A stretch of 64,000 bases of DNA. Origin: Candidatus Hebobacterum abditum. Lineage in GTDB: Bacteria; Armatimonadota; Hebobacteria; Hebobacterales; Hebobacteraceae. This document shows positions 25,565-63,318 of the stretch, one piece after another. The stretch is taken from NCBI GenBank assembly GCA_029821875.1, contig JALGXW010000011.1, positions 15,060 to 79,059 of the forward strand. The letters run 5' to 3'. The notes below the pieces were generated by a model that ran no database searches, had not been told where the DNA came from, and was given only the letters and a program-made list of their open reading frames with translations. Each line of letters opens with the position of its first letter. Position 1 is the first letter of the stretch. Both the position numbers and the translations under genes were made by a program.

Positions 25565-26794
25565 ATGGAGCGCGAGCGGACAACAGCCTTCAGCGAAGCC
25601 TGCAACGCCGGAGAGCCGGCCGTCGCGCCGGACGGTAAGGGAGACCCGTTCGCCTGGTTCGCTTCGATGCTGCCTAACTGCCTGGAGTACGCGAAGGCGG
25701 CCAAAGCGGAGGGGCGGCCGATCGTCGGCATAACGTGCGAATACACGCCGAGAGAACTGATAGTCGCCGCCGGGGCGGTCCCGGTGTGCCTGTGCGGCGG
25801 CTCCGCGGACACCATTCCTACGGCCGAGCGAGACCTTCCCGCCAACCTGTGTCCGCTGGTCAAGTCCACCTATGGCTACCACGCAGAGAAGGGCAACCCA
25901 CTCCTTGAGATGGCCGATCTGCTTGTGGTCGAGACGACCTGCGACGGCAAGAAGAAGATGTACGAGCTGATGGCCGAGAGCCGGCCCGTGCATCTGCTCG
26001 AGCTGCCGCAGAAGGCGGAAGACGATGCTGCCTTCGAGCACTGGGCGGGCGAGCTTCGCGCCCTTGTCGCCGTGCTTGCGGAGAAGCTCGGCGGCTCGCC
26101 GTCCCAGGATGGCATCGAGAGCGCAATTCGAGCCATGAATCGCGAGCGATCGCTGCGGCGCGACCTGGCCGCCCTGATGCAGTCGGACGCCCCCCCGCTA
26201 ACCGGACGGCAACTGCTCGACTGCCGAAGCATCATCGCCGGCGTTCCTGTGGCTCTGGAACAGTATGAGCGGACGCTGGACATGCTTCGGGCCGGGGAAG
26301 CGCGTGGCGAGATGAATTCGGGGGTGCGCGTGCTGATGACAGGCGTGCCGATCGTCCGGGGAGCGGAGCGCGTTGTGGACATAGTCGAAGGAGCCGGCGG
26401 CCTCGTCGTCTGCATGGAGAACTGCACAGGTGTCAAGCCGATTCTCGACGACGTCGCAGAGGGTACGCCCGATCCGATGCACGCGATAGCCGAGAAGTAC
26501 TTCGCGCTGCCCTGCTCGGTGATGACGCCGAATGAGCGACGGCAGACGACGCTCCGTCAGCTGGCGGAGGAGTACCGACCACAGTGCGTGATCGAGCTCA
26601 TCTGGCAGGCCTGCCTGACCTATGACGTTGAGTCGTTCTTCATCCGGCGTCTGGCGGAGGAAGAACTCGGGATACCGTATCTTCGAATCGAGACGGACTA
26701 CTCGCCATCCGACTCCGCGCGCATTGAGACACGGGTGCAGGCTCTCTTCGAGACGGTGCGCGGGCGGTCTGTTGCCGAGACGAGAAGAGGATGA
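25565..26794 (+). CDS. 2-hydroxyacyl-CoA dehydratase family / double-cubane-cluster (YjiM-like) protein
   Basis: 409 aa with conserved Cys positions (ITCEYTPRELI, VCLCGG, NLCPLVKS, ETTCDGKKKMYE). It is a single subunit immediately followed by an activase gene. Confidence 0.75.
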   Translation: MERERTTAFSEACNAGEPAVAPDGKGDPFAWFASMLPNCLEYAKAAKAEGRPIVGITCEYTPRELIVAAGAVPVCLCGGSADTIPTAERDLPANLCPLVKSTYGYHAEKGNPLLEMADLLVVETTCDGKKKMYELMAESRPVHLLELPQKAEDDAAFEHWAGELRALVAVLAEKLGGSPSQDGIESAIRAMNRERSLRRDLAALMQSDAPPLTGRQLLDCRSIIAGVPVALEQYERTLDMLRAGEARGEMNSGVRVLMTGVPIVRGAERVVDIVEGAGGLVVCMENCTGVKPILDDVAEGTPDPMHAIAEKYFALPCSVMTPNERRQTTLRQLAEEYRPQCVIELIWQACLTYDVESFFIRRLAEEELGIPYLRIETDYSPSDSARIETRVQALFETVRGRSVAETRRG

Positions 26795-26797
26795 GCC

Positions 26798-27571
26798 TTG
26801 ATCTGTGCTGGCATTGACGCGGGCTCCAGGACGACCAAGATCGCCCTCATGGGAGACGGCGACGAGGTGCTGCTCGCGTCGGCGGTGGGCGAGCCGGGTG
26901 CGTGCACCGCGACTCAGGCGGAGGAGCTGTTCGAGAAGACCGTCGCGCAGCACCAAGTGGACCGGGACCGCATCGGGCGCGTCGTCGCAACGGGATACGG
27001 CCGCGCGGCACTACAGATGGCCGATACGACCGTCACCGAGATAACATGCCATGCCCGCGGGGTGCAGTTTCTCGAGCCAAGAGCGGCCACCGTGGTGGAG
27101 ATCGGCGGACAGGATAGCAAGATCATCCTGCTGGACGGGAACGGCGGGGTCCGCGATTTCGTCATGAACGACCGTTGTGCGGCTGGCACAGGTCGATTCC
27201 TGGAGATGGTCGCGGAGCGCCTCGACGTCGGGGCCGTGGGGCTTGGCGAGTTGGCGGCCGGGAGTCAGAAGCCAGCGACCATCAATCCCACTTGCGCCGT
27301 CTTTGCGGAGACTGAGATCATCGGACTGCTATCGGCCGGCGCGAAGCCCCAGGACGTCGCGGCCGGCGTGCAGGAAACCGTCGCCACCCGCATGGCGACT
27401 CTGGCCGTAGGCAGGGCCGAGCGGCCCGTGGTCTTCGCCGGTGGCGTGGCGCTGATACCGGGGATGGCCAGCGCGCTGAGTCGCGCCCTTGCGTGTCAAG
27501 TAGAGGTGGCGAGCGCGCCGCAGCTCACCGGAGCCATCGGAGCGGCGCTCATAGCCTGCCGGGAGGCATGA
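26798..27571 (+). CDS. CoA-substrate-specific enzyme activase (BcrAD/BadFG/HgdC/YjiL-type ATPase)
   Basis: ICAGIDAGSRTTKIAL, VVEIGGQDSKII, NDRCAAGTGRFLE (cluster-ligating Cys), CAVFAETE. TTG start. Confidence 0.85.
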   Translation: MICAGIDAGSRTTKIALMGDGDEVLLASAVGEPGACTATQAEELFEKTVAQHQVDRDRIGRVVATGYGRAALQMADTTVTEITCHARGVQFLEPRAATVVEIGGQDSKIILLDGNGGVRDFVMNDRCAAGTGRFLEMVAERLDVGAVGLGELAAGSQKPATINPTCAVFAETEIIGLLSAGAKPQDVAAGVQETVATRMATLAVGRAERPVVFAGGVALIPGMASALSRALACQVEVASAPQLTGAIGAALIACREA

Positions 27572-27688
27572 TGCGTTGAGCAGGCCGCGCGAGCAGCATG
27601 TTGAGAACGGGACAGATGGGTGCTATGATGATCTGTCTGCTGGCAACATCACGAGTCGCCTTGAGGGACTGTCAGAAAGGACCCTTCC

Positions 27689-27967
27689 ATGACAGCAGGC
27701 AGGGCAGGCTTCCTGGTCTCGCTGGTGCCACTGGCGGTCTATCTCTCCGCGATATGTTCCCAGCCTGGCTGAGGGACGTCTGTCGGAAGCCTGTTAGGCT
27801 TCCTCGCGGTGGGATCGATCCCGGTGGCCCTTGGGCTTGGCATCAAGGGCCGGCGGCAAGGCGTTGACCGTGCGTACGCGACAGCAGGATTGCTGATCAG
27901 CAGCGTGACAGCGGCGTTTGTCTTGTTGCTGCTTGGTGTCGGGCTCGCCATGTCGGTGTATAGGTGA
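27689..27967 (+). CDS. small two/three-helix membrane protein; putative selenoprotein (in-frame TGA at 27770..27772)
   Basis: Hand translation: MTAGRAGFLVSLVPLAVYLSAICSQPG-TGA-GTSVGSLLGFLAVGSIPVALGLGIKGRRQGVDRAYATAGLLISSVTAAFVLLLLGVGLAMSVYR. Both halves are hydrophobic. A hairpin lies 12 nt after the TGA. The stop is 31 nt upstream of selD. The post-TGA half has no convincing start codon of its own. Confidence 0.45.
27785..27803 (+). promoter_or_regulatory. putative bacterial SECIS hairpin
   Basis: GGAAGCC-UGUUA-GGCUUCC is a perfect 7-bp stem with a 5-nt loop containing GU, 12 nt after the TGA at 27770..27772. Confidence 0.5.
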
Positions 27968-27997
27968 GTTCGAGTCGATCGTGCAACTAAGGAGTGG

Positions 27998-29629
27998 ATG
28001 GTGGCAGGTACGTCAAAGCGGGCGCGAGTGATGGGTCGGTCTGCCCGCGTTGGGCACTGCATCTGCGATCCGAGGAAGCCGTGCCCCTGCGACGTCTTCC
28101 TGGAGCAAGACGTGTGTCTCTGTGCGGGCGAACGCCTGCCGGACGCCGACAGCCCCACGGAGTCGATCGCCTTGACCAAGCTAGTGAAGAACGCTGGCTG
28201 CGCCTCGAAGATCCCTCCCGCCTACCTGGCATCGATTCTCTCCCGCCTACCGAGGATAGAGGACCCGCGGCTGCTCGTCGGGAGCCACACAGCGGACGAC
28301 GCCGGGGTCTTCGAGATCGCCCCTGATCTGCTCCTGGTGCAGACGGTCGACGTCTTCGCTCCCTGTGTCGATGATCCGTACGAGTTCGGACAGATCGCGG
28401 CCTGCAACTCGCTGAGCGATTGCTACGCAATGGGTGGGACCCCGCTCACTGCGATGTCTGTCATCGGCTACCCCGCGCATACCTTGAGCGATGAGTGGAT
28501 GTGCCAGATCCTACGGGGGGGCATGGACAAGCTGGCGGAGGCCGATGTGGTCCTCGTCGGCGGCCACAGCGCCAACGACGACGATATCAGGTTCGGCTTC
28601 GCAGTGACTGGCATCGCGAGCCAGGCCGACCTGATCACCAACGCAGGCGCGCAGCCGGGTGACCTGCTCATCCTGACGAAGCCCCTGGGAACGGGGATAG
28701 TCGCCTTCGCCTCCCAGGTCGGACGCGCCTCGGAGGAGGACAAGCGAGCGTCCGCGGCCTCCATGATGATGCTCAACCGGGCCGCGTCGCAGGTCATGCG
28801 CGAGGTTGGCGCTCATGCCTGCACGGACGTCACGGGATTCGGCCTCCTCGGCCACCTTCGCCACATGGTGTGCGCAAGCCGCGTCACAGCAGAGGTCTGG
28901 TGGGAGAGACTGCCGCTGTTCGAGGGGATCGGGGGATATGCTCTGGACGGCCTGGTCTCCGGGGCCGCCGAACGCAACCGGGAGTTCGCCGGGGAACTGA
29001 CCGAGGTGGGGGAGGCGACCCCGGAATGGGTGTTGGATGTCCTCTATGACCCGCAGACATCGGGGGGACTGCTGATTTCCGTTGCGGCCACATCGGCCGA
29101 GCCCACTGTCTCGCGGCTCAAATCGCTGGGGTGCACCGAGTCCGCCGTAGTCGGCCAAGTGACCGAGGAATCGGAGGGGAGGATACTGGTGAAGAAGGCA
29201 GATGAGAGTGCCGCGAGTGACGCCGTGTCGGGCTCACCCGCGCGTGACAGGGCGGCGCAAGACGACATCGCGTCGGCAGCCTCGCGGAGTGTGCCTGTGG
29301 CAGAGGCGAACACCGAGGAATGCTGCGCGCCTGGCAGCGCTCCCGCCGACGCGAGCGAGACGCAGAGGCGGTTCAGCCAGTTCATGGGCGCCGCCTTCGG
29401 GCCCGGCGCCCTGGACGTGGTTCAGAAAGAGCTCGTCACGATCGCGCTGTCGGTTGCGACGCGCTGTGAGCCATGCCTCAAGGTTCACCTGGACAAGGCC
29501 GAGAAGATGGGAATCTCGGCTGATGAGGTGAAGGAGGCCGCCTGGATGGGCGTGGCCTTTGGCGGCGCCAGCGCGATGATGTTCTGGACGGAAGCATCGA
29601 AGCTGCTGCTTGATGACGAAGGCGCGTAG
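27998..29629 (+). CDS. selD: selenide, water dikinase (selenophosphate synthetase) with N-terminal Cys-rich extension and C-terminal AhpD/carboxymuconolactone-decarboxylase-like domain
   Basis: SelD core: LTKLVKNAGCASKIPP (Cys form of the catalytic loop), DDAGVFE, QTVDVF, GGHSANDDDIRFG, TDVTGFGLLGHL. N-terminal HCICDPRKPCPCDVFLEQDVCLCAGE. The C-terminal roughly 90 aa contain the RCEPC (CxxC) motif typical of AhpD-like domains. Confidence 0.9.
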   Translation: MVAGTSKRARVMGRSARVGHCICDPRKPCPCDVFLEQDVCLCAGERLPDADSPTESIALTKLVKNAGCASKIPPAYLASILSRLPRIEDPRLLVGSHTADDAGVFEIAPDLLLVQTVDVFAPCVDDPYEFGQIAACNSLSDCYAMGGTPLTAMSVIGYPAHTLSDEWMCQILRGGMDKLAEADVVLVGGHSANDDDIRFGFAVTGIASQADLITNAGAQPGDLLILTKPLGTGIVAFASQVGRASEEDKRASAASMMMLNRAASQVMREVGAHACTDVTGFGLLGHLRHMVCASRVTAEVWWERLPLFEGIGGYALDGLVSGAAERNREFAGELTEVGEATPEWVLDVLYDPQTSGGLLISVAATSAEPTVSRLKSLGCTESAVVGQVTEESEGRILVKKADESAASDAVSGSPARDRAAQDDIASAASRSVPVAEANTEECCAPGSAPADASETQRRFSQFMGAAFGPGALDVVQKELVTIALSVATRCEPCLKVHLDKAEKMGISADEVKEAAWMGVAFGGASAMMFWTEASKLLLDDEGA

Positions 29630-29702
29630 GGACAACTGTGCCCTCTTCTATGGAATGCGCGGAGGACCTCGGGTCGAAGTCAGGCAGCGTTGACGTCGAG
29701 GC

Positions 29703-29801
29703 GGGAGCGGATTGGTTCTGGTGGACCTCCCCGGGCTTCAAACCCGGCGGTGGGGCCCTGATAAGGTCCTGGGTGGGTTCGATTCCCACACGCTCCCGCC
29801 A
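29703..29801 (+). tRNA. selC: tRNA-Sec (anticodon UCA)
   Basis: Anticodon arm CCGGG-CUUCAAA-CCCGG with UCA at positions 34-36. Long variable arm GGGCC-CUGAUAA-GGUCC. T arm GUGGG-UUCGAUU-CCCAC. Acceptor GGGAGCG/CGCUCCC, then G73 and an encoded CCA. It lies between selD and selA. Confidence 0.85.
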
Positions 29802-29850
29802 ACTCGGTCTGACGACTTGATTCAAGCGGAGAACCGTTCCTAGAGAGCAC

Positions 29851-30756
29851 ATGAGCACGAGCGACCGCCGACAGCGACTGCTGGAGAAACGGCCACGAGT
29901 GCAGCTCTACTCCCTCGTTGTGCTCAACAGCTACATCCTCGCACCTGTCGGCAAGTACATCTGCCTGCCTGTGCTGAACTGCTACGCCTGCCCGATTGGG
30001 ACCGTCGCTTGTCCGGTCGGAAGCATCACCGCCTTCGTTATGGTGCCCTACTTCCCATTCTACGTCATCGGCATGCTGGGCATCGCCGGCCTTGCCGTCG
30101 GCAGAGCCTTCTGCGGATGGGCCTGCCCGTTCGGGTACGTGCAGGATCTGCTCCATCGCATCCCTGGCCGCAAGTTCGGGCTGCCTCGTGCACTCGACGC
30201 GACGAAGTACGTCTTGCTAGTCGTCCTTGTGGTGGGCCTTCCTCTTCTGCTTGGCAACCCGTACGACTTCACGGGAACTGAGCGAGTCGTCTTCGAGGCA
30301 GGCGGCACGTGGGACTACTGTGCACTGGTGTGCCCTGTCGGGACGCTCCAGGCGGGTGTGCCCGGCCTCATAGCCAATGCCGACTTCCGCGAGAAGGCAT
30401 CGTGGCGCACGGCGAGCAAGCTCGCCATCCTCGCTATCGTGTTGGCCCTCGCCGTGCTGTCGCACCGGAGCTTCTGCCGAGTTCTGTGTCCGCTTGGCGC
30501 ACTCATGGCGATCGCCTCGATTGTCAAGCTGCCCCGGCTTCGCACCGATCAGGGCGCGTGCACGCGCTGCCTGCGCTGCCGCCGCACATGCCCGACCAGC
30601 AGTCGCTTAGTACCAGAGAATGCCGGCGAGGGCGAGGCCACCTCCGAGTGCGTTCTCTGTCTCGAATGTGTGCGGGTCTGCCCTGAGGCCGGCGCGCTCT
30701 CTGCTTCCCTGGGAGGGAAGTCCCTGGTGACATCCGGAGGAAAGACGAGTGAGTAG
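29851..30756 (+). CDS. NapH/NosR-type membrane 4Fe-4S polyferredoxin
   Basis: CxxxCP motifs (NCYACPIG, VACPVGS, GWACPFGYVQDLL, LVCPVGT, VLCPLGA) within TM segments, plus two ferredoxin motifs CTRCLRCRRTCP and CVLCLECVRVCP. Confidence 0.8.
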   Translation: MSTSDRRQRLLEKRPRVQLYSLVVLNSYILAPVGKYICLPVLNCYACPIGTVACPVGSITAFVMVPYFPFYVIGMLGIAGLAVGRAFCGWACPFGYVQDLLHRIPGRKFGLPRALDATKYVLLVVLVVGLPLLLGNPYDFTGTERVVFEAGGTWDYCALVCPVGTLQAGVPGLIANADFREKASWRTASKLAILAIVLALAVLSHRSFCRVLCPLGALMAIASIVKLPRLRTDQGACTRCLRCRRTCPTSSRLVPENAGEGEATSECVLCLECVRVCPEAGALSASLGGKSLVTSGGKTSE

Positions 30757-30877
30757 GAAGACCTGGATACTGGTTGCTGTCGTGCTGTCGGTACTGGCCG
30801 CATGCCTCGCGTATGGCATCTACCTCGGCGACCCGGGCTATGTGTTCGCCAATGCCCTGGCCGTCTGCTATACGTGA
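30749..30877 (+). CDS. possible 42-aa single-helix membrane peptide
   Basis: GTG at 30749 overlaps the polyferredoxin stop. The translation is VSRKTWILVAVVLSVLAACLAYGIYLGDPGYVFANALAVCYT. It is below the track cutoff and has no homology support. Confidence 0.3.
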   Translation: MSRKTWILVAVVLSVLAACLAYGIYLGDPGYVFANALAVCYT

Positions 30878-30898
30878 CCGCTAGGAGAATGACCGCGC

Positions 30899-32323
30899 GT
30901 GTCGCGGCCCAAACCCAACAACGGTGATGACGATCGGTCCGCCCTCCGGCGGCTCCCGCGCGTGGACGACCTCCTCGCGCACCACCTGCTGGCCGACCTG
31001 GTTCGGCGCGCGCCCCGCTCTGTCGCGCTCAGTGCTGCCCGGGACGCGGTGGCCGAGGCGCGGGAGCAGATCCGCCGAGGCGAGGACATGTCCGACCACG
31101 ATTTGGTCGCGGCGCGAGCGGCCGAACTCCTGGAGGGACGCCTGCGGCCGAGCCTCCGTAGGTGCATCAACGCAACCGGTGTCATCCTTCACACTGGGCT
31201 CGGCCGAGCGCCCTTCTCGGCGGCCGCGCAGAGCGCGGTGGCGGAGGTGACGAAGGGATACAGCAACGTGCAGGCCGACATCGCAACGGGCCAGCGCGCC
31301 AGCCGGGAGGCACACGTGGAGTGGCTCCTCGAGCAGATCTGCGGTGCTCCCGCGGCGGTGGTCGTGAACAACAACGCCGCGGCGACGGTGCTCGTACTGA
31401 ACACACTGGCGGCCGACCGAGAGGTCATCGTCTCCCGCGGTGAGCTCATCGAGATCGGCGGAGCGTTCCGTCTTCCCGATATCATCCGTCTGGCGCGCTG
31501 CCGATTGGTCGAGGTCGGCTGCACGAACAGAACACACCTGCGCGACTATGAGCAAGCGATTACAGGGGACACCGCGCTGCTGCTCTCGATCCATCAAAGC
31601 AACTACGTGATCCAGGGCTTTGCCTCTCAGGTGGACATCAGCGAGATCGCCCGATTGGCGAAGTCCCGCAATCTGGTGTGCGCGCACGACCTCGGCAGTG
31701 GGGCGCTGGTCGACCTGCGCCGCTTCGGCTTGCCCTATGAACCTGTGGTGCGGGTGAGCCTGGAGGGGGGCGCCGACATTGCCTTCTTCAGCGGGGACAA
31801 GCTGCTCGGCGGGCCGCAGTGCGGGGTAATCGTGGGCGAGGCCGATCTTCTGCAGTCGATGCGTCAGAACCCCTTCTATCGCACCTTCAGGGTCGACAAG
31901 CTCACGCTCGCCGCGCTCGAGAGTACCCTGCGTCTCTTCTTGGATGTTGACGCACTGCCCGACACGCATCGCGTCATCGCCATGCTGACCGTCCCCGTGG
32001 AAGAGCTGAGGGCCCGAGCCCAAACGCTGGCGGAGACCGCGCGCGAGCGTTGTGGCTCCTGGCTTCGCACAGACGTGCGCGACGGGGAGTCGCAAGTCGG
32101 CGGCGGCTCTCTTGCAGGCCACGCGCTTCCCACTGCGCTCGTGGCGCTCGTGTCCGATCGCGTGTCGCCGCTCGAACTTGCGCGTCGGCTCCGCGCAGGC
32201 GATCCACCGGTGTTCGCGCGAGTCGGGGACGACGCCGTGCTCCTCGATGCCCGCACTATGGAGGCGAGCGACGACGCTCCTCTCGTACATGCCCTGGAGC
32301 AGGTGGGTCGCTCCCTTGGGTGA
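30899..32323 (+). CDS. selA: L-seryl-tRNA(Sec) selenium transferase
   Basis: GELIEIGGAFRLPDI and FSGDKLLGGPQCGVIVG (PLP lysine motif). The 474-aa length fits SelA. GTG start with AGGAGA upstream. Confidence 0.9.
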   Translation: MSRPKPNNGDDDRSALRRLPRVDDLLAHHLLADLVRRAPRSVALSAARDAVAEAREQIRRGEDMSDHDLVAARAAELLEGRLRPSLRRCINATGVILHTGLGRAPFSAAAQSAVAEVTKGYSNVQADIATGQRASREAHVEWLLEQICGAPAAVVVNNNAAATVLVLNTLAADREVIVSRGELIEIGGAFRLPDIIRLARCRLVEVGCTNRTHLRDYEQAITGDTALLLSIHQSNYVIQGFASQVDISEIARLAKSRNLVCAHDLGSGALVDLRRFGLPYEPVVRVSLEGGADIAFFSGDKLLGGPQCGVIVGEADLLQSMRQNPFYRTFRVDKLTLAALESTLRLFLDVDALPDTHRVIAMLTVPVEELRARAQTLAETARERCGSWLRTDVRDGESQVGGGSLAGHALPTALVALVSDRVSPLELARRLRAGDPPVFARVGDDAVLLDARTMEASDDAPLVHALEQVGRSLG

Positions 32324-32329
32324 GGCCTC

Positions 32330-34252
32330 GTGACAACGGGCCGCCATATCATCTTCGGCACCGCAGGACATGTCGACCACGGGAAGTCGGCGCTCGTGCT
32401 CGCGCTGACCGGCACTGATCCCGACAGGCTGGCCGAAGAGAAAGCTCGGGAGATGACCATCGACCTGGGCTTCGCTTTCCTCGCCCTCCCGGGCGTCGCC
32501 GATACTGTCGCCATCGTCGATGTCCCGGGCCACGAGATGTTCATTCGGAACATGGTCGCTGGCGCGAGCGGTGTGGACGCCGCCCTCTTCGTGGTGGCCG
32601 CCGACGAGGGCGTGATGCCCCAGACCGTCGAGCATCTCGAGGTGCTCCGGCAGCTGGGGATCGCCGACGGCGTCGTGGCGCTCACCAAGATCGACAGAGT
32701 TGCCGACCCTCGCCTCGACGCGGTGCAGGAAGAAACGGCCAAACTTATCGCCGGCTCCTTCTTGGAGCAGGCAGCCATCGTCCCCGCGTCGGCCACAACG
32801 GGAGAAGGTGTAGAGGAAGTGCGCCGCGCGATGGCAGACGTCGCCGCCAGGACAGAACCTCGCGCCTCGGCCGGCCCCTTTCGCCTGCCGATCGATCGAG
32901 TGTTCGTTCTCAAGGGAGTTGGCACAGTGGTCACTGGCTCAGTCGTATCCGGCTCGGCGACCGTCGGCGACGAAATGGAATGCCTGCCAGGCGGGAGGCG
33001 CGTTCGGATTCGGAACATTCACGTCCACGAGCAGCCAGTCAGGCACGCACTCGCAGGCCAGCGAGCAGCGCTGAACCTCCCTGACGTTGCGAAGGATGAG
33101 CTCCACCGCGGAGACGTCCTCGCGACACCTGGGCCCTTCGCGCCGAGCACCATGATGGATGTCCGTGTGACTCTGGCCCGCACGCTGCGATCCCCATTGG
33201 AGCAGAGGGACCGAGTGCGTCTCCATCACGGAACGGCTGAAGTGATGGGTCGTGTCGTTCTTCTCGAAGGGGACGAGATGCGAGCAGGCGGCTCCGGCCT
33301 CGCACAGCTGCGTCTCGAGTCGCCGCTCGTGGCCGCGCCGGGAGACCGGTTCGTCATGCGCTCTTACTCGCCGATGACCGTCACAGGCGGTGGGACGATC
33401 ATTGACCCACACCCGCCGAAGCGCCGGAAGGCCAGGGGCGCCGCCGCCGTTGCCGAGCGCGAGGAACTCCCGCCCGCCGAGCGGGCGATGGACGCGCTTT
33501 CCTCCGCCGGCCCGCATGGCTTGCCGGTCGCCGAGCTAGCGCTCCGGTGTAGCCTGCCCGCGGACGAGCTCCACTCGATCCTCGACGACCTCTGCAAGCA
33601 GGACCGTGCTCGCCCCGGCCGACAAGCGGCGTGGTTCTCCGAGACGGCTGTCCGCGAGATGGAGTCCCAGATCGTGCAGTGTCTGGAGGCTCTGCATGCC
33701 GACACACCGGTCCACGCGTCTCTGCCGCTGAACGCTGTCATCGAGGTCGTCGCTCCCTCGGCGGCAAAGCGGGAGTGCTTCCGGCTCGCGCTCGACGCGC
33801 TCACTGAGGGCGGCGTTGTCGTTCGGTCAGGTGACCGAGTCCGGCTTGCCTCACACGCGGCGAGCTGGACTGGCGAGGCCGCCGCTGCGCGCGACGAGAT
33901 CCTCCGCAGGCTGCTCGACAACGGCCTTGCCGTGCCGTCGCCGGAGGAACTCGCGCCACATCTGTCGGTGAACCCGAAGGAGTGTCTCAGACTGCTCGAC
34001 GCGCTGGCCGCATCCGGCGATGTGGTGAGGGTCGCGCCAGATATGTTCGTGCACGCGCAGGTGGTGGCTCACGCCACCTCTGCCGTTCAAGATTACCTTC
34101 AGCGGCAGAGGACCATGACCATCGGGGAGTGTCGTGAGCTGCTGGGCGCCTCCCGCAAGTACTTGCTCCCCTTCCTCGAGCATCTGGACAGCGCCGGAAT
34201 CACCACGCGACGGGGAAACCATCGGATACTCGCACGTCGGCCGAATGGATAA
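32330..34252 (+). CDS. selB: selenocysteine-specific translation elongation factor
   Basis: IIFGTAGHVDHGKSALVLALTG (G1), DVPGHEMF (G3), TKID (G4), followed by a long C-terminal winged-helix-type extension. 640 aa. Confidence 0.9.
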   Translation: MTTGRHIIFGTAGHVDHGKSALVLALTGTDPDRLAEEKAREMTIDLGFAFLALPGVADTVAIVDVPGHEMFIRNMVAGASGVDAALFVVAADEGVMPQTVEHLEVLRQLGIADGVVALTKIDRVADPRLDAVQEETAKLIAGSFLEQAAIVPASATTGEGVEEVRRAMADVAARTEPRASAGPFRLPIDRVFVLKGVGTVVTGSVVSGSATVGDEMECLPGGRRVRIRNIHVHEQPVRHALAGQRAALNLPDVAKDELHRGDVLATPGPFAPSTMMDVRVTLARTLRSPLEQRDRVRLHHGTAEVMGRVVLLEGDEMRAGGSGLAQLRLESPLVAAPGDRFVMRSYSPMTVTGGGTIIDPHPPKRRKARGAAAVAEREELPPAERAMDALSSAGPHGLPVAELALRCSLPADELHSILDDLCKQDRARPGRQAAWFSETAVREMESQIVQCLEALHADTPVHASLPLNAVIEVVAPSAAKRECFRLALDALTEGGVVVRSGDRVRLASHAASWTGEAAAARDEILRRLLDNGLAVPSPEELAPHLSVNPKECLRLLDALAASGDVVRVAPDMFVHAQVVAHATSAVQDYLQRQRTMTIGECRELLGASRKYLLPFLEHLDSAGITTRRGNHRILARRPNG

Positions 34253-63114: not shown

Positions 63115-63318
63115 CTGGTCTCCTGCCGGGCTTGGCACTGAGTCCACGAGAGTCTCCCCCTGTGTGTTGGCTGCGTCTTGGCCAGCTACACTGGGCGCTG
63201 TGCTGATTCTCCGACGGGAAGAGGCGCACCTCTGCAGGTGATGGCGGCCGGCGCGGTCTGGCCTAAAGGACCCGGTCAGTACCGCAGCGAACGCGCAGTG
63301 AGTTCCAGCACAGAGAAG

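Follow-up and report, generated by a model that had tools for sequence, protein, structure and literature searches.

A probable small membrane selenoprotein gene ahead of selD in the sel operon of Candidatus Hebobacterum abditum

The small gene and its operon

The window, i.e., the whole 64,000-nucleotide stretch of Candidatus Hebobacterum abditum DNA analyzed here, carries a small ORF on its plus strand at 27689–27967. The frame runs from the ATG at 27689 to the TGA stop at 27965–27967 and is interrupted solely at the TGA at 27770–27772. If this TGA is decoded, the ORF comprises 92 sense codons and reads MTAGRAGFLVSLVPLAVYLSAICSQPG-U-GTSVGSLLGFLAVGSIPVALGLGIKGRRQGVDRAYATAGLLISSVTAAFVLLLLGVGLAMSVYR, a 92-residue product with selenocysteine (Sec) at position 28 in the motif PG-U-G. 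The ORF had been proposed in a sequence-only reading of the region; its coordinates were re-derived, and the translation was identical to the one quoted. A Shine-Dalgarno-like (SD-like) AAAGGA is located at 27676–27681 on the plus strand, as had also been noted, but it ends 7 nt before the ATG instead of 8 nt, and purine-rich SD-like stretches also precede the start in the related loci L006, L007, L010, L015, and L017. TGA otherwise serves as a stop codon in the window (e.g., the activase gene and the small ORF both end in TGA), and thus, the genetic code is the standard one.

Between the activase gene and the small ORF, we found a sigma-70-like promoter (27601–27629, plus strand) consisting of TTGAGA, a 17-nt spacer, and (TG)TATGAT. 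It has 10 of 12 matches and an extended −10 element, where 0.3 such sites would be expected by chance in the region, and the alignment showed that it was kept in L001, L002, and L006. With this putative promoter, the transcript would begin with the small ORF as its first cistron. Two ORFs overlapping the small gene, one antisense (27739–28179) and one in the +1 frame (27598–27867), were rejected as spurious; their GC content by codon position was atypical, and dN/dS in the other frames was approximately 1 or higher. One of them overlaps the promoter and the other the start of selD.

The small ORF is followed on the same strand by selD, the tRNA-Sec gene, a gene for a NapH-like 4Fe-4S membrane protein, selA, and selB, and therefore SelA, SelB, SelD, and tRNA-Sec are all encoded. 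The selD gene (27998–29629, plus strand) specifies a Cys form of the enzyme that is extended by a Cys-rich segment at the N-terminus and by a CMD/AhpD-like domain at the C-terminus. Its ATG at 27998 lies close to the small ORF and on the same strand, as previously read, although the gap is 30 nt and not 31 nt. Neither a terminator or anti-terminator nor a significant SD-masking structure was detected in this gap, and selD has its own SD sequence. The tRNA-Sec gene (selC; 29703–29801, plus strand) was also found by Rfam. The selA (30899–32323) and selB (32330–34252) genes were assigned from plus-strand ORFs, and their orthologs in L001 matched the Pfam models Se-cys_synth_N and SelA, and GTP_EFTU, Beta-barrel_SelB, and WHD_3rd_SelB, respectively. 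The selB product is the expected binder of the hairpin described below.

Relatives of the small protein (loci denoted by L and proteins by P) were collected by two word-indexed protein searches, an exhaustive HMMER search of 1.84 billion representatives using only the part of the protein after the TGA as the query, and a metagenome scan. About ten distinct relatives were recovered, all from metagenomes or metagenome-assembled genomes (MAGs), and the exhaustive profile search returned 6 proteins. The closest named genome was a Candidatus Hebobacteria MAG (phylum Armatimonadota), whose SelD is approximately 90% identical to that of the window. The small gene is located directly 5′ of selD in the window and in L001, L002, L006, L007, L010, and L015/L016; the neighboring selD always encodes the Cys-rich N-terminal extension, and the C-terminal CMD/AhpD-like domain is present wherever the 3′ end is visible. 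The relatives L008/L009, L017, and P0009 are not adjacent to selD, and the planctomycete loci L004 and L005 have the same SelD architecture with the small gene absent. As L008/L009 and L017 lie apart from selD and L004 and L005 are without the small gene, the link to SelD is not obligatory.

Several features of the neighborhood were recorded in their own right. The N-terminal Cys-rich extension of SelD comprises approximately 55 residues (HCICDPRKPCPCDVF...CLCAGE) with no family match, and the C-terminal CMD/AhpD-like domain carries a CxxC motif; both were observed in the window (27998–29629), L004, L005, L007, and L016. A survey of SelD fusions in 2015 contained N-terminal fusions only (PMC4561486), and the C-terminal AhpD-like fusion may not have been described before. 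Directly 5′ of the sel cluster are genes for a double-cubane-cluster reductase (NF040772) and an ATP-dependent activase (25565–27571). The same linkage was found in L001 (306–2300), L004 (1508–3849), and L016 (396–2421), spanning Armatimonadota relatives, an unassigned metagenome contig (L016), and a Planctomycetaceae MAG, and this conserved arrangement may point to a low-potential reduction step connected with selenium metabolism. The order of tRNA-Sec followed by the NapH-like 4Fe-4S membrane protein (Fer4_5) at 29703–30756 was also found in L001, L003, and L004 (8142–9126) and is thus kept across two phyla.

A possible second mini-selenoprotein follows the NapH-like gene. This 42-codon membrane ORF (30749–30889; 5403–5543 in L001 and 2566–2706 in L003) ends in ...AVCYT-TGA-PLGE-TGA, and read-through of the first TGA would give C-x-x-U. 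Only the read-through form hit NF040920 (CD1871A family CXXC small protein), and weakly so (E = 0.063; 13 bits with a cutoff of 32). Two close relatives keep both this TGA and the tail. Behind the TGA lies a weak hairpin of 5 bp, which shares bases with the selA start codon at 30899, and no Cys homolog of this mini-ORF was found. A second known selenoprotein gene in the window was also sought for SECIS comparison, but the best candidate (TGA at 63139) was not a continuous gene and was discarded.

The UGA codon and the hairpin behind it

A hairpin with an 8-bp stem starts 12 nt after the TGA, at 27785–27803 of the plus strand. Its arms, GGAAGCCU (27785–27792) and AGGCUUCC (27796–27803), pair perfectly around the loop GUU (27793–27795; UGUUA including the closing U-A pair), which starts 20 nt after the UGA, and the free energy of the hairpin is −11.6 kcal/mol. 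The perfect hairpin that had been reported 12 nt past the TGA is therefore present. A comparable hairpin (stem of at least 8 bp with G-U allowed, G early in the loop, and correct placement after the TGA) follows 18 of all 1519 TGA trinucleotides in the window, and because of this chance level of 1.2%, a hairpin in a single sequence is just suggestive. The same figure counts in favor of reading the TGA as an ordinary stop, which would leave a 27-codon leader peptide followed by a separate small gene (e.g., from the GTG at 27809), with the hairpin being incidental or regulatory. Gene callers point in the same direction, as they annotate only C-terminal fragments of the family (P0001, P0003, P0005, and P0006).

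The decisive evidence is comparative: in six lineages, both the TGA and a covarying hairpin are conserved. The TGA occupies the same alignment column in these lineages, whose proteins are between 37% and 87% identical to that of the window. The Sec motif reads QPG-U-GT in the window, L002, L006, and L015/L016, NPG-U-GT in L010, GAG-U-KG in L017, and FC-U-GH in L008/L009. For the covariation test, six sequences were placed in an ungapped alignment starting at the TGA, and a four-sequence version was also run. Across the six sequences, 95.8% of the cells of the 8-bp helix pair, and five of the eight pairs have changes on both sides; none of 500 shuffles reached the observed values, and pairing was only 38–69% when the 3′ partners were slid by 1–3 columns. 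The stem sequence differs by lineage, while its geometry and its distance from the UGA are constant; the equivalent hairpin in L008 has an unrelated sequence and a spacer shifted by one base. The amino acids encoded by the stem vary between lineages while pairing is maintained, which points to selection on the RNA.

According to the bacterial SECIS (bSECIS) model attributed to Zhang and Gladyshev, as summarized in a 2026 review (PMC13188914), the apical loop is 3–9 nt with a G within the first two loop positions (mostly N1-G-[G/U]-N-N2), the distance from the UGA to the loop is 16–37 nt, and the free energy is at or below −7.5 kcal/mol. The hairpins of the family agree with the model in all four of these respects. 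The loops, including the closing pair, are UGUUA, UGGCA, UGGGA, UGUCA, and GGUCC, which all fit N1-G-[G/U]-N-N2 and begin 20–22 nt from the UGA. Folded in isolation, the hairpins of the window, L006, L010, and L008 had free energies from −9.3 to −11.6 kcal/mol. The uninterrupted, non-Sec homologs lack the hairpin. An Rfam scan of 27400–30000 returned tRNA-Sec only, with no known RNA family over the small ORF. The whole-region fold z-scores were not significant in this GC-rich sequence and thus were not counted as evidence. Pairing between the 5′ arm of the hairpin and a GGCTTCC copy located further 5′ (27707) was regarded as incidental, as this pairing is not conserved in L002 or L006. As a separate observation, 17 nt around the Sec codon, CAGCCTGGCTGAGGGAC (27761–27777 in the window and 2564–2580 in L015), are identical in the window group and L015. 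The proteins of these two are only 44% identical, yet synonymous positions around the Sec codon are conserved too, a pattern that suggests either a lower SECIS helix or a constraint acting at the RNA level on the surroundings of the UGA.

Two homologs are uninterrupted at the Sec column, with GGA (Gly) in P0007 (from L007) and Pro in P0009. The gene for P0007 is located directly 5′ of a selD-CMD gene. BLASTP aligned residues 5–74 of the window protein with P0007 straight across the Sec site (E = 8e-13), and tblastn alignments among the loci also span the TGA. It follows that the 27 codons ahead of the TGA encode the authentic N-terminus of this protein. The sequence-only reading had named two observations that would speak against the ORF, and neither was made: the N-terminal 27 codons are conserved, being homologous to the N-terminus of the uninterrupted homologs, and a start after the TGA is not conserved, as GCG in L002 and CTG in L006 stand in place of the GTG of AVGSIP. 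The starts that gene callers gave to the C-terminal fragments differ in each relative and cut helix 2, and no conserved SD sequence precedes any of them. A separate downstream gene was rejected because no start codon is conserved; with both parts also in one frame in six lineages, uninterrupted homologs spanning the two, and a hairpin that covaries and obeys the bSECIS rules, an ordinary stop at 27770 is very improbable.

The homologs 5′ of selD had also been suggested as a place to look for Cys or Sec at this position, and there the column is TGA in most and Gly in L007. No homolog with Cys in place of Sec was found in the protein searches, the exhaustive search, or the metagenome scan. Nearly all known selenoprotein families have such Cys homologs. 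Since the position is Gly or Pro in the non-Sec members, the Sec may not be catalytic. The GGA in L007 (257–259) is one base change from TGA, and Sec may have been gained or lost in this family via Gly rather than Cys.

The region behaves as coding sequence on both sides of the TGA. Against L002, L006, L015, and L010, dN/dS was 0.34–0.53 in the proposed frame and 0.8–1.0 and 1.6–3.3 in the two alternative frames; restricted to the codons preceding the TGA (only about 27), it was 0.25–0.64. These selection statistics are weak, as the part before the TGA has only 27 codons and the family is very small (approximately ten distinct sequences). The GC content by codon position matches the pattern of the neighboring genes on both sides of the TGA, whereas that of the intergenic leader does not. 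The in-frame UGA is thus conserved among homologs, with coding conservation before and after it.

A natural deletion variant was found in L001 (GCA_975903045.1). In the window, a 9-nt direct repeat, AGGCTTCCT, occurs at 27706–27714 (plus strand) and again at 27796–27804, within the 3′ arm of the hairpin. L001 has lost the 90-nt interval between the two copies in frame. What remains is an open frame of 62 residues that begins at the same ATG; the 5′ arm of the hairpin, the Sec codon, and helix 1 are gone. The in-frame deletion keeping the ATG confirmed that this start is used, and it showed that the Sec segment can be lost. A truncated tandem paralog (...PMALAAFLSVTGLVRDPRKGYAVAGLILS...) without helix 1 and the Sec loop was observed in L010 (1380–1560), just 5′ of the Sec copy. 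The deletion, the truncated copy, and the rarity of the family are what a decaying pseudogene of a small membrane protein with a nonsense mutation might leave. This explanation was rejected because the TGA and the helix are conserved together, the RNA helix having co-evolved with the TGA. The TGA also keeps its column in six lineages, even at 37% identity, dN/dS stays below 1 before and after it, and the start codon, SD sequence, and promoter are conserved, so that decay is hardly credible here.

A single ORF read through a Sec-UGA by the canonical SelB-SECIS mechanism is strongly supported by these sequence comparisons. We consider it probable that a true selenoprotein gene opens the sel operon at this locus and that it belongs to a family absent from every library and paper searched.

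The predicted protein and its likeness to known systems

The 92-codon gene very probably encodes a tiny three-helix membrane protein with selenocysteine. The sequence-only reading had described a small membrane protein with two transmembrane helices; the membrane character held, but hydropathy analysis gave three hydrophobic segments. Helix 1 is predicted at approximately residues 8–22 (27710–27754, plus strand), helix 2 at approximately residues 32–52 (27782–27844), and helix 3 at 27878–27955, with a positively charged loop, KGRRQGVDRAY (27845–27877), between the latter two; the first codons of helix 2 double as the SECIS hairpin. The most conserved stretch of the family, GRRxG.D..YA.AGLLIS, extends from this loop into helix 3. 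All full-length members have the three hydrophobic segments, with positive charges at the N-terminus and in loop 2 and a mostly uncharged Sec loop. By the positive-inside rule, the N-terminus and loop 2 would be cytoplasmic and the Sec loop and the C-terminus outside. An AF2 model of P0007, although of low confidence (pLDDT of 66), has helices at 3–26, 34–61, and 66–96, and the Sec-equivalent position is inside the sole long loop (27–33). We infer a three-helix membrane protein with its N-terminus inside and its Sec in an outer loop after helix 1.

Cys23 (TGT at 27755–27757, plus strand) precedes the Sec by five residues and forms the motif C-x4-U. This motif, which had been proposed for the protein, occurs in the window, L002, and L008 and is missing from L006, L010, L015, and L017. 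L008 has a further Cys directly before the Sec (U-1), the Cys of L006, L010, and L015 is the last or next-to-last residue of the C-terminal tail, and L017 has none. A Cys is thus on the predicted outer face in five of the six Sec lineages. Of the non-Sec forms, P0007 and L001 are devoid of Cys, and the single Cys of P0009 is placed by prediction at the cytoplasmic end of helix 2. The pattern hints at a selenylsulfide couple, which is not a rule.

The small protein matched no model in Pfam or NCBIfam; a scan of NCBIfam release 20 (E up to 1; NF041xxx, NF049xxx, TIGR04081, and others) gave only two irrelevant sub-threshold hits, and a sequence profile search of the PDB gave nothing meaningful. 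A resemblance to DUF4190 (PF13828) had been suggested, and by eye we take the C-terminal two-helix hairpin, with its basic loop followed by a G..A.AGL motif, to be a look-alike of that family. The HMM test failed, as the window protein had no hit up to E = 10 and one of seven members was hit at E = 2.8, below the gathering threshold; moreover, the search of 1.84 billion proteins gave 6 proteins and not the large DUF4190 family.

A comparable system is MerT (PF02411), for which a Sec form (C/SxxU) was reported. Both are small three-helix inner-membrane proteins with a chalcogen-ligand pair near the outer end of helix 1, and both are encoded beside a cytoplasmic enzyme that takes the substrate, as is proposed here for SelD. 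They differ in that none of seven members shows sequence similarity to MerT at E values up to 10, the cytoplasmic loop of the small protein is without Cys and thus without the second Cys pair, and its motif is PG-U-G, not CC or CxxU. YedE/YeeE (PF04143), a candidate selenium/thiosulfate transporter with a Sec form (GUxSG), is likewise a membrane protein linked to selenium metabolism with Sec or Cys in a Gly-rich loop; however, it is a much larger polytopic protein, and none of the seven members matched its HMM. Canonical bSECIS selenoprotein genes share with the small gene the in-frame UGA, the stem-loop, the G-[G/U] loop 20–22 nt on, and the presence of selA, selB, selC, and selD. In contrast to them, the small protein matches none of the selenoprotein models in Pfam and NCBIfam and is a 92-residue integral membrane protein without Cys homologs. 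No description of the family was found in the 2026 review and its prokaryotic family table (PMC13188914), the deep-Sep paper, or the BSepDB paper, and term searches of the review text, table included, gave no comparable small membrane protein. The decoding mechanism is canonical, and the family itself is new relative to the literature and libraries searched.

Possible function and significance

In the proposed mechanism, transcription would start from the conserved TTGAGA-17-TATGAT promoter, and ribosomes would initiate at the ATG at 27689. At the UGA at 27770, SelB carrying Sec-tRNASec and bound to the hairpin at 27785–27803 would insert selenocysteine, and translation would then run to the TGA at 27965. 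The product would be a three-helix inner-membrane protein with its N-terminus and the KGRRQGVDR loop in the cytoplasm and the PG-U-G loop at the outer face. The Sec, or a Sec-Cys couple, may capture or reduce selenium species at the membrane surface and hand selenium towards SelD, whose Cys-rich N-terminal extension and AhpD-like CxxC domain could be the acceptors, in analogy to the mercury relay of MerT. As the full-length protein needs Sec-tRNASec, its production would rise with the selenium supply. A role in selenium uptake or delivery is read only from the gene neighborhood, where adjacency to selD suggests selenium handling. Capture or reduction of selenium at the membrane and its hand-over to SelD is the likeliest function, and it is put forward tentatively, at clearly less than even confidence.

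The UGA and the SECIS hairpin could instead act mainly as a selenium-status sensor for the operon, with the Sec residue having no chemical role. When Sec-tRNASec is plentiful, ribosomes would read through; without it, a stop at codon 28 would leave an untranslated leader of approximately 225 nt before selD, and the expression of selD, selC, selA, and selB would be altered by polarity or by SelB held on the hairpin. Such a circuit would fit the location of the small gene 30 nt ahead of selD, where it is the first cistron after a conserved promoter, the alignment of the Sec column with Gly or Pro and never Cys, and the dispensability of the Sec segment in L001. There is also a precedent in E. 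coli, where SelB represses selAB when bound to a SECIS-like element of its leader (PMC13449736). Both cases have a SelB-binding hairpin (predicted here) in the 5′ part of a sel transcript, but the hairpin of the small ORF lies within a translated ORF behind a real UGA and precedes selD, not selA. Other observations weigh against a mere sensor: the Sec members L008/L009 and L017 are not beside selD, purifying selection acts on the protein after the UGA, where conservation within the family is highest, a search for terminators and anti-terminators gave none and the SD sequence of selD is not significantly masked, and PG-U-G with a same-face Cys is conserved in most lineages. We therefore regard a predominantly regulatory role as unlikely, though less so than a stop codon or a pseudogene.

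Returning to selenium capture, a more specific form of this reading can be outlined. The small protein might be a dedicated selenium-acquisition element of a kind new to prokaryotes, acting as a MerT-like relay in which the outward Sec and Cys would capture selenium as a Se-Se or Se-S adduct and pass it to SelD at its fused Cys-rich and AhpD-like domains. The system would itself sense the selenium supply via the UGA and SECIS at the head of the selD-selC-selA-selB operon, and the NapH-like protein and the possible CxxU mini-protein (30749–30889) could be redox partners. We consider the scheme as a whole rather doubtful.

New selenoprotein families are reported regularly, and the known list exceeds 100 families. 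The usual way to detect bacterial families is to look for homologs in which Cys is matched with TGA, a type of search that would miss the present family because it has no Cys homologs. The absence of Cys homologs, together with members that are called only as fragments, points to a class of selenoproteins overlooked by standard searches. The combination of a very small integral membrane selenoprotein, Sec at the predicted outer face, and a position as the first gene of the operon that makes selenocysteine is unusual, and being tiny, membrane-bound, without Cys homologs, and at the head of the sel operon makes the family more interesting than an average new one. If its function proves unrelated, it would be a modest addition to the list of more than 100 families. 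The 2026 review notes that a specific high-affinity system for selenium transport has yet to be identified in prokaryotes (PMC13188914), and for this reason, a membrane selenoprotein tied to selD is a concrete candidate for selenium capture or delivery, with a selenium-sensing circuit as the alternative.
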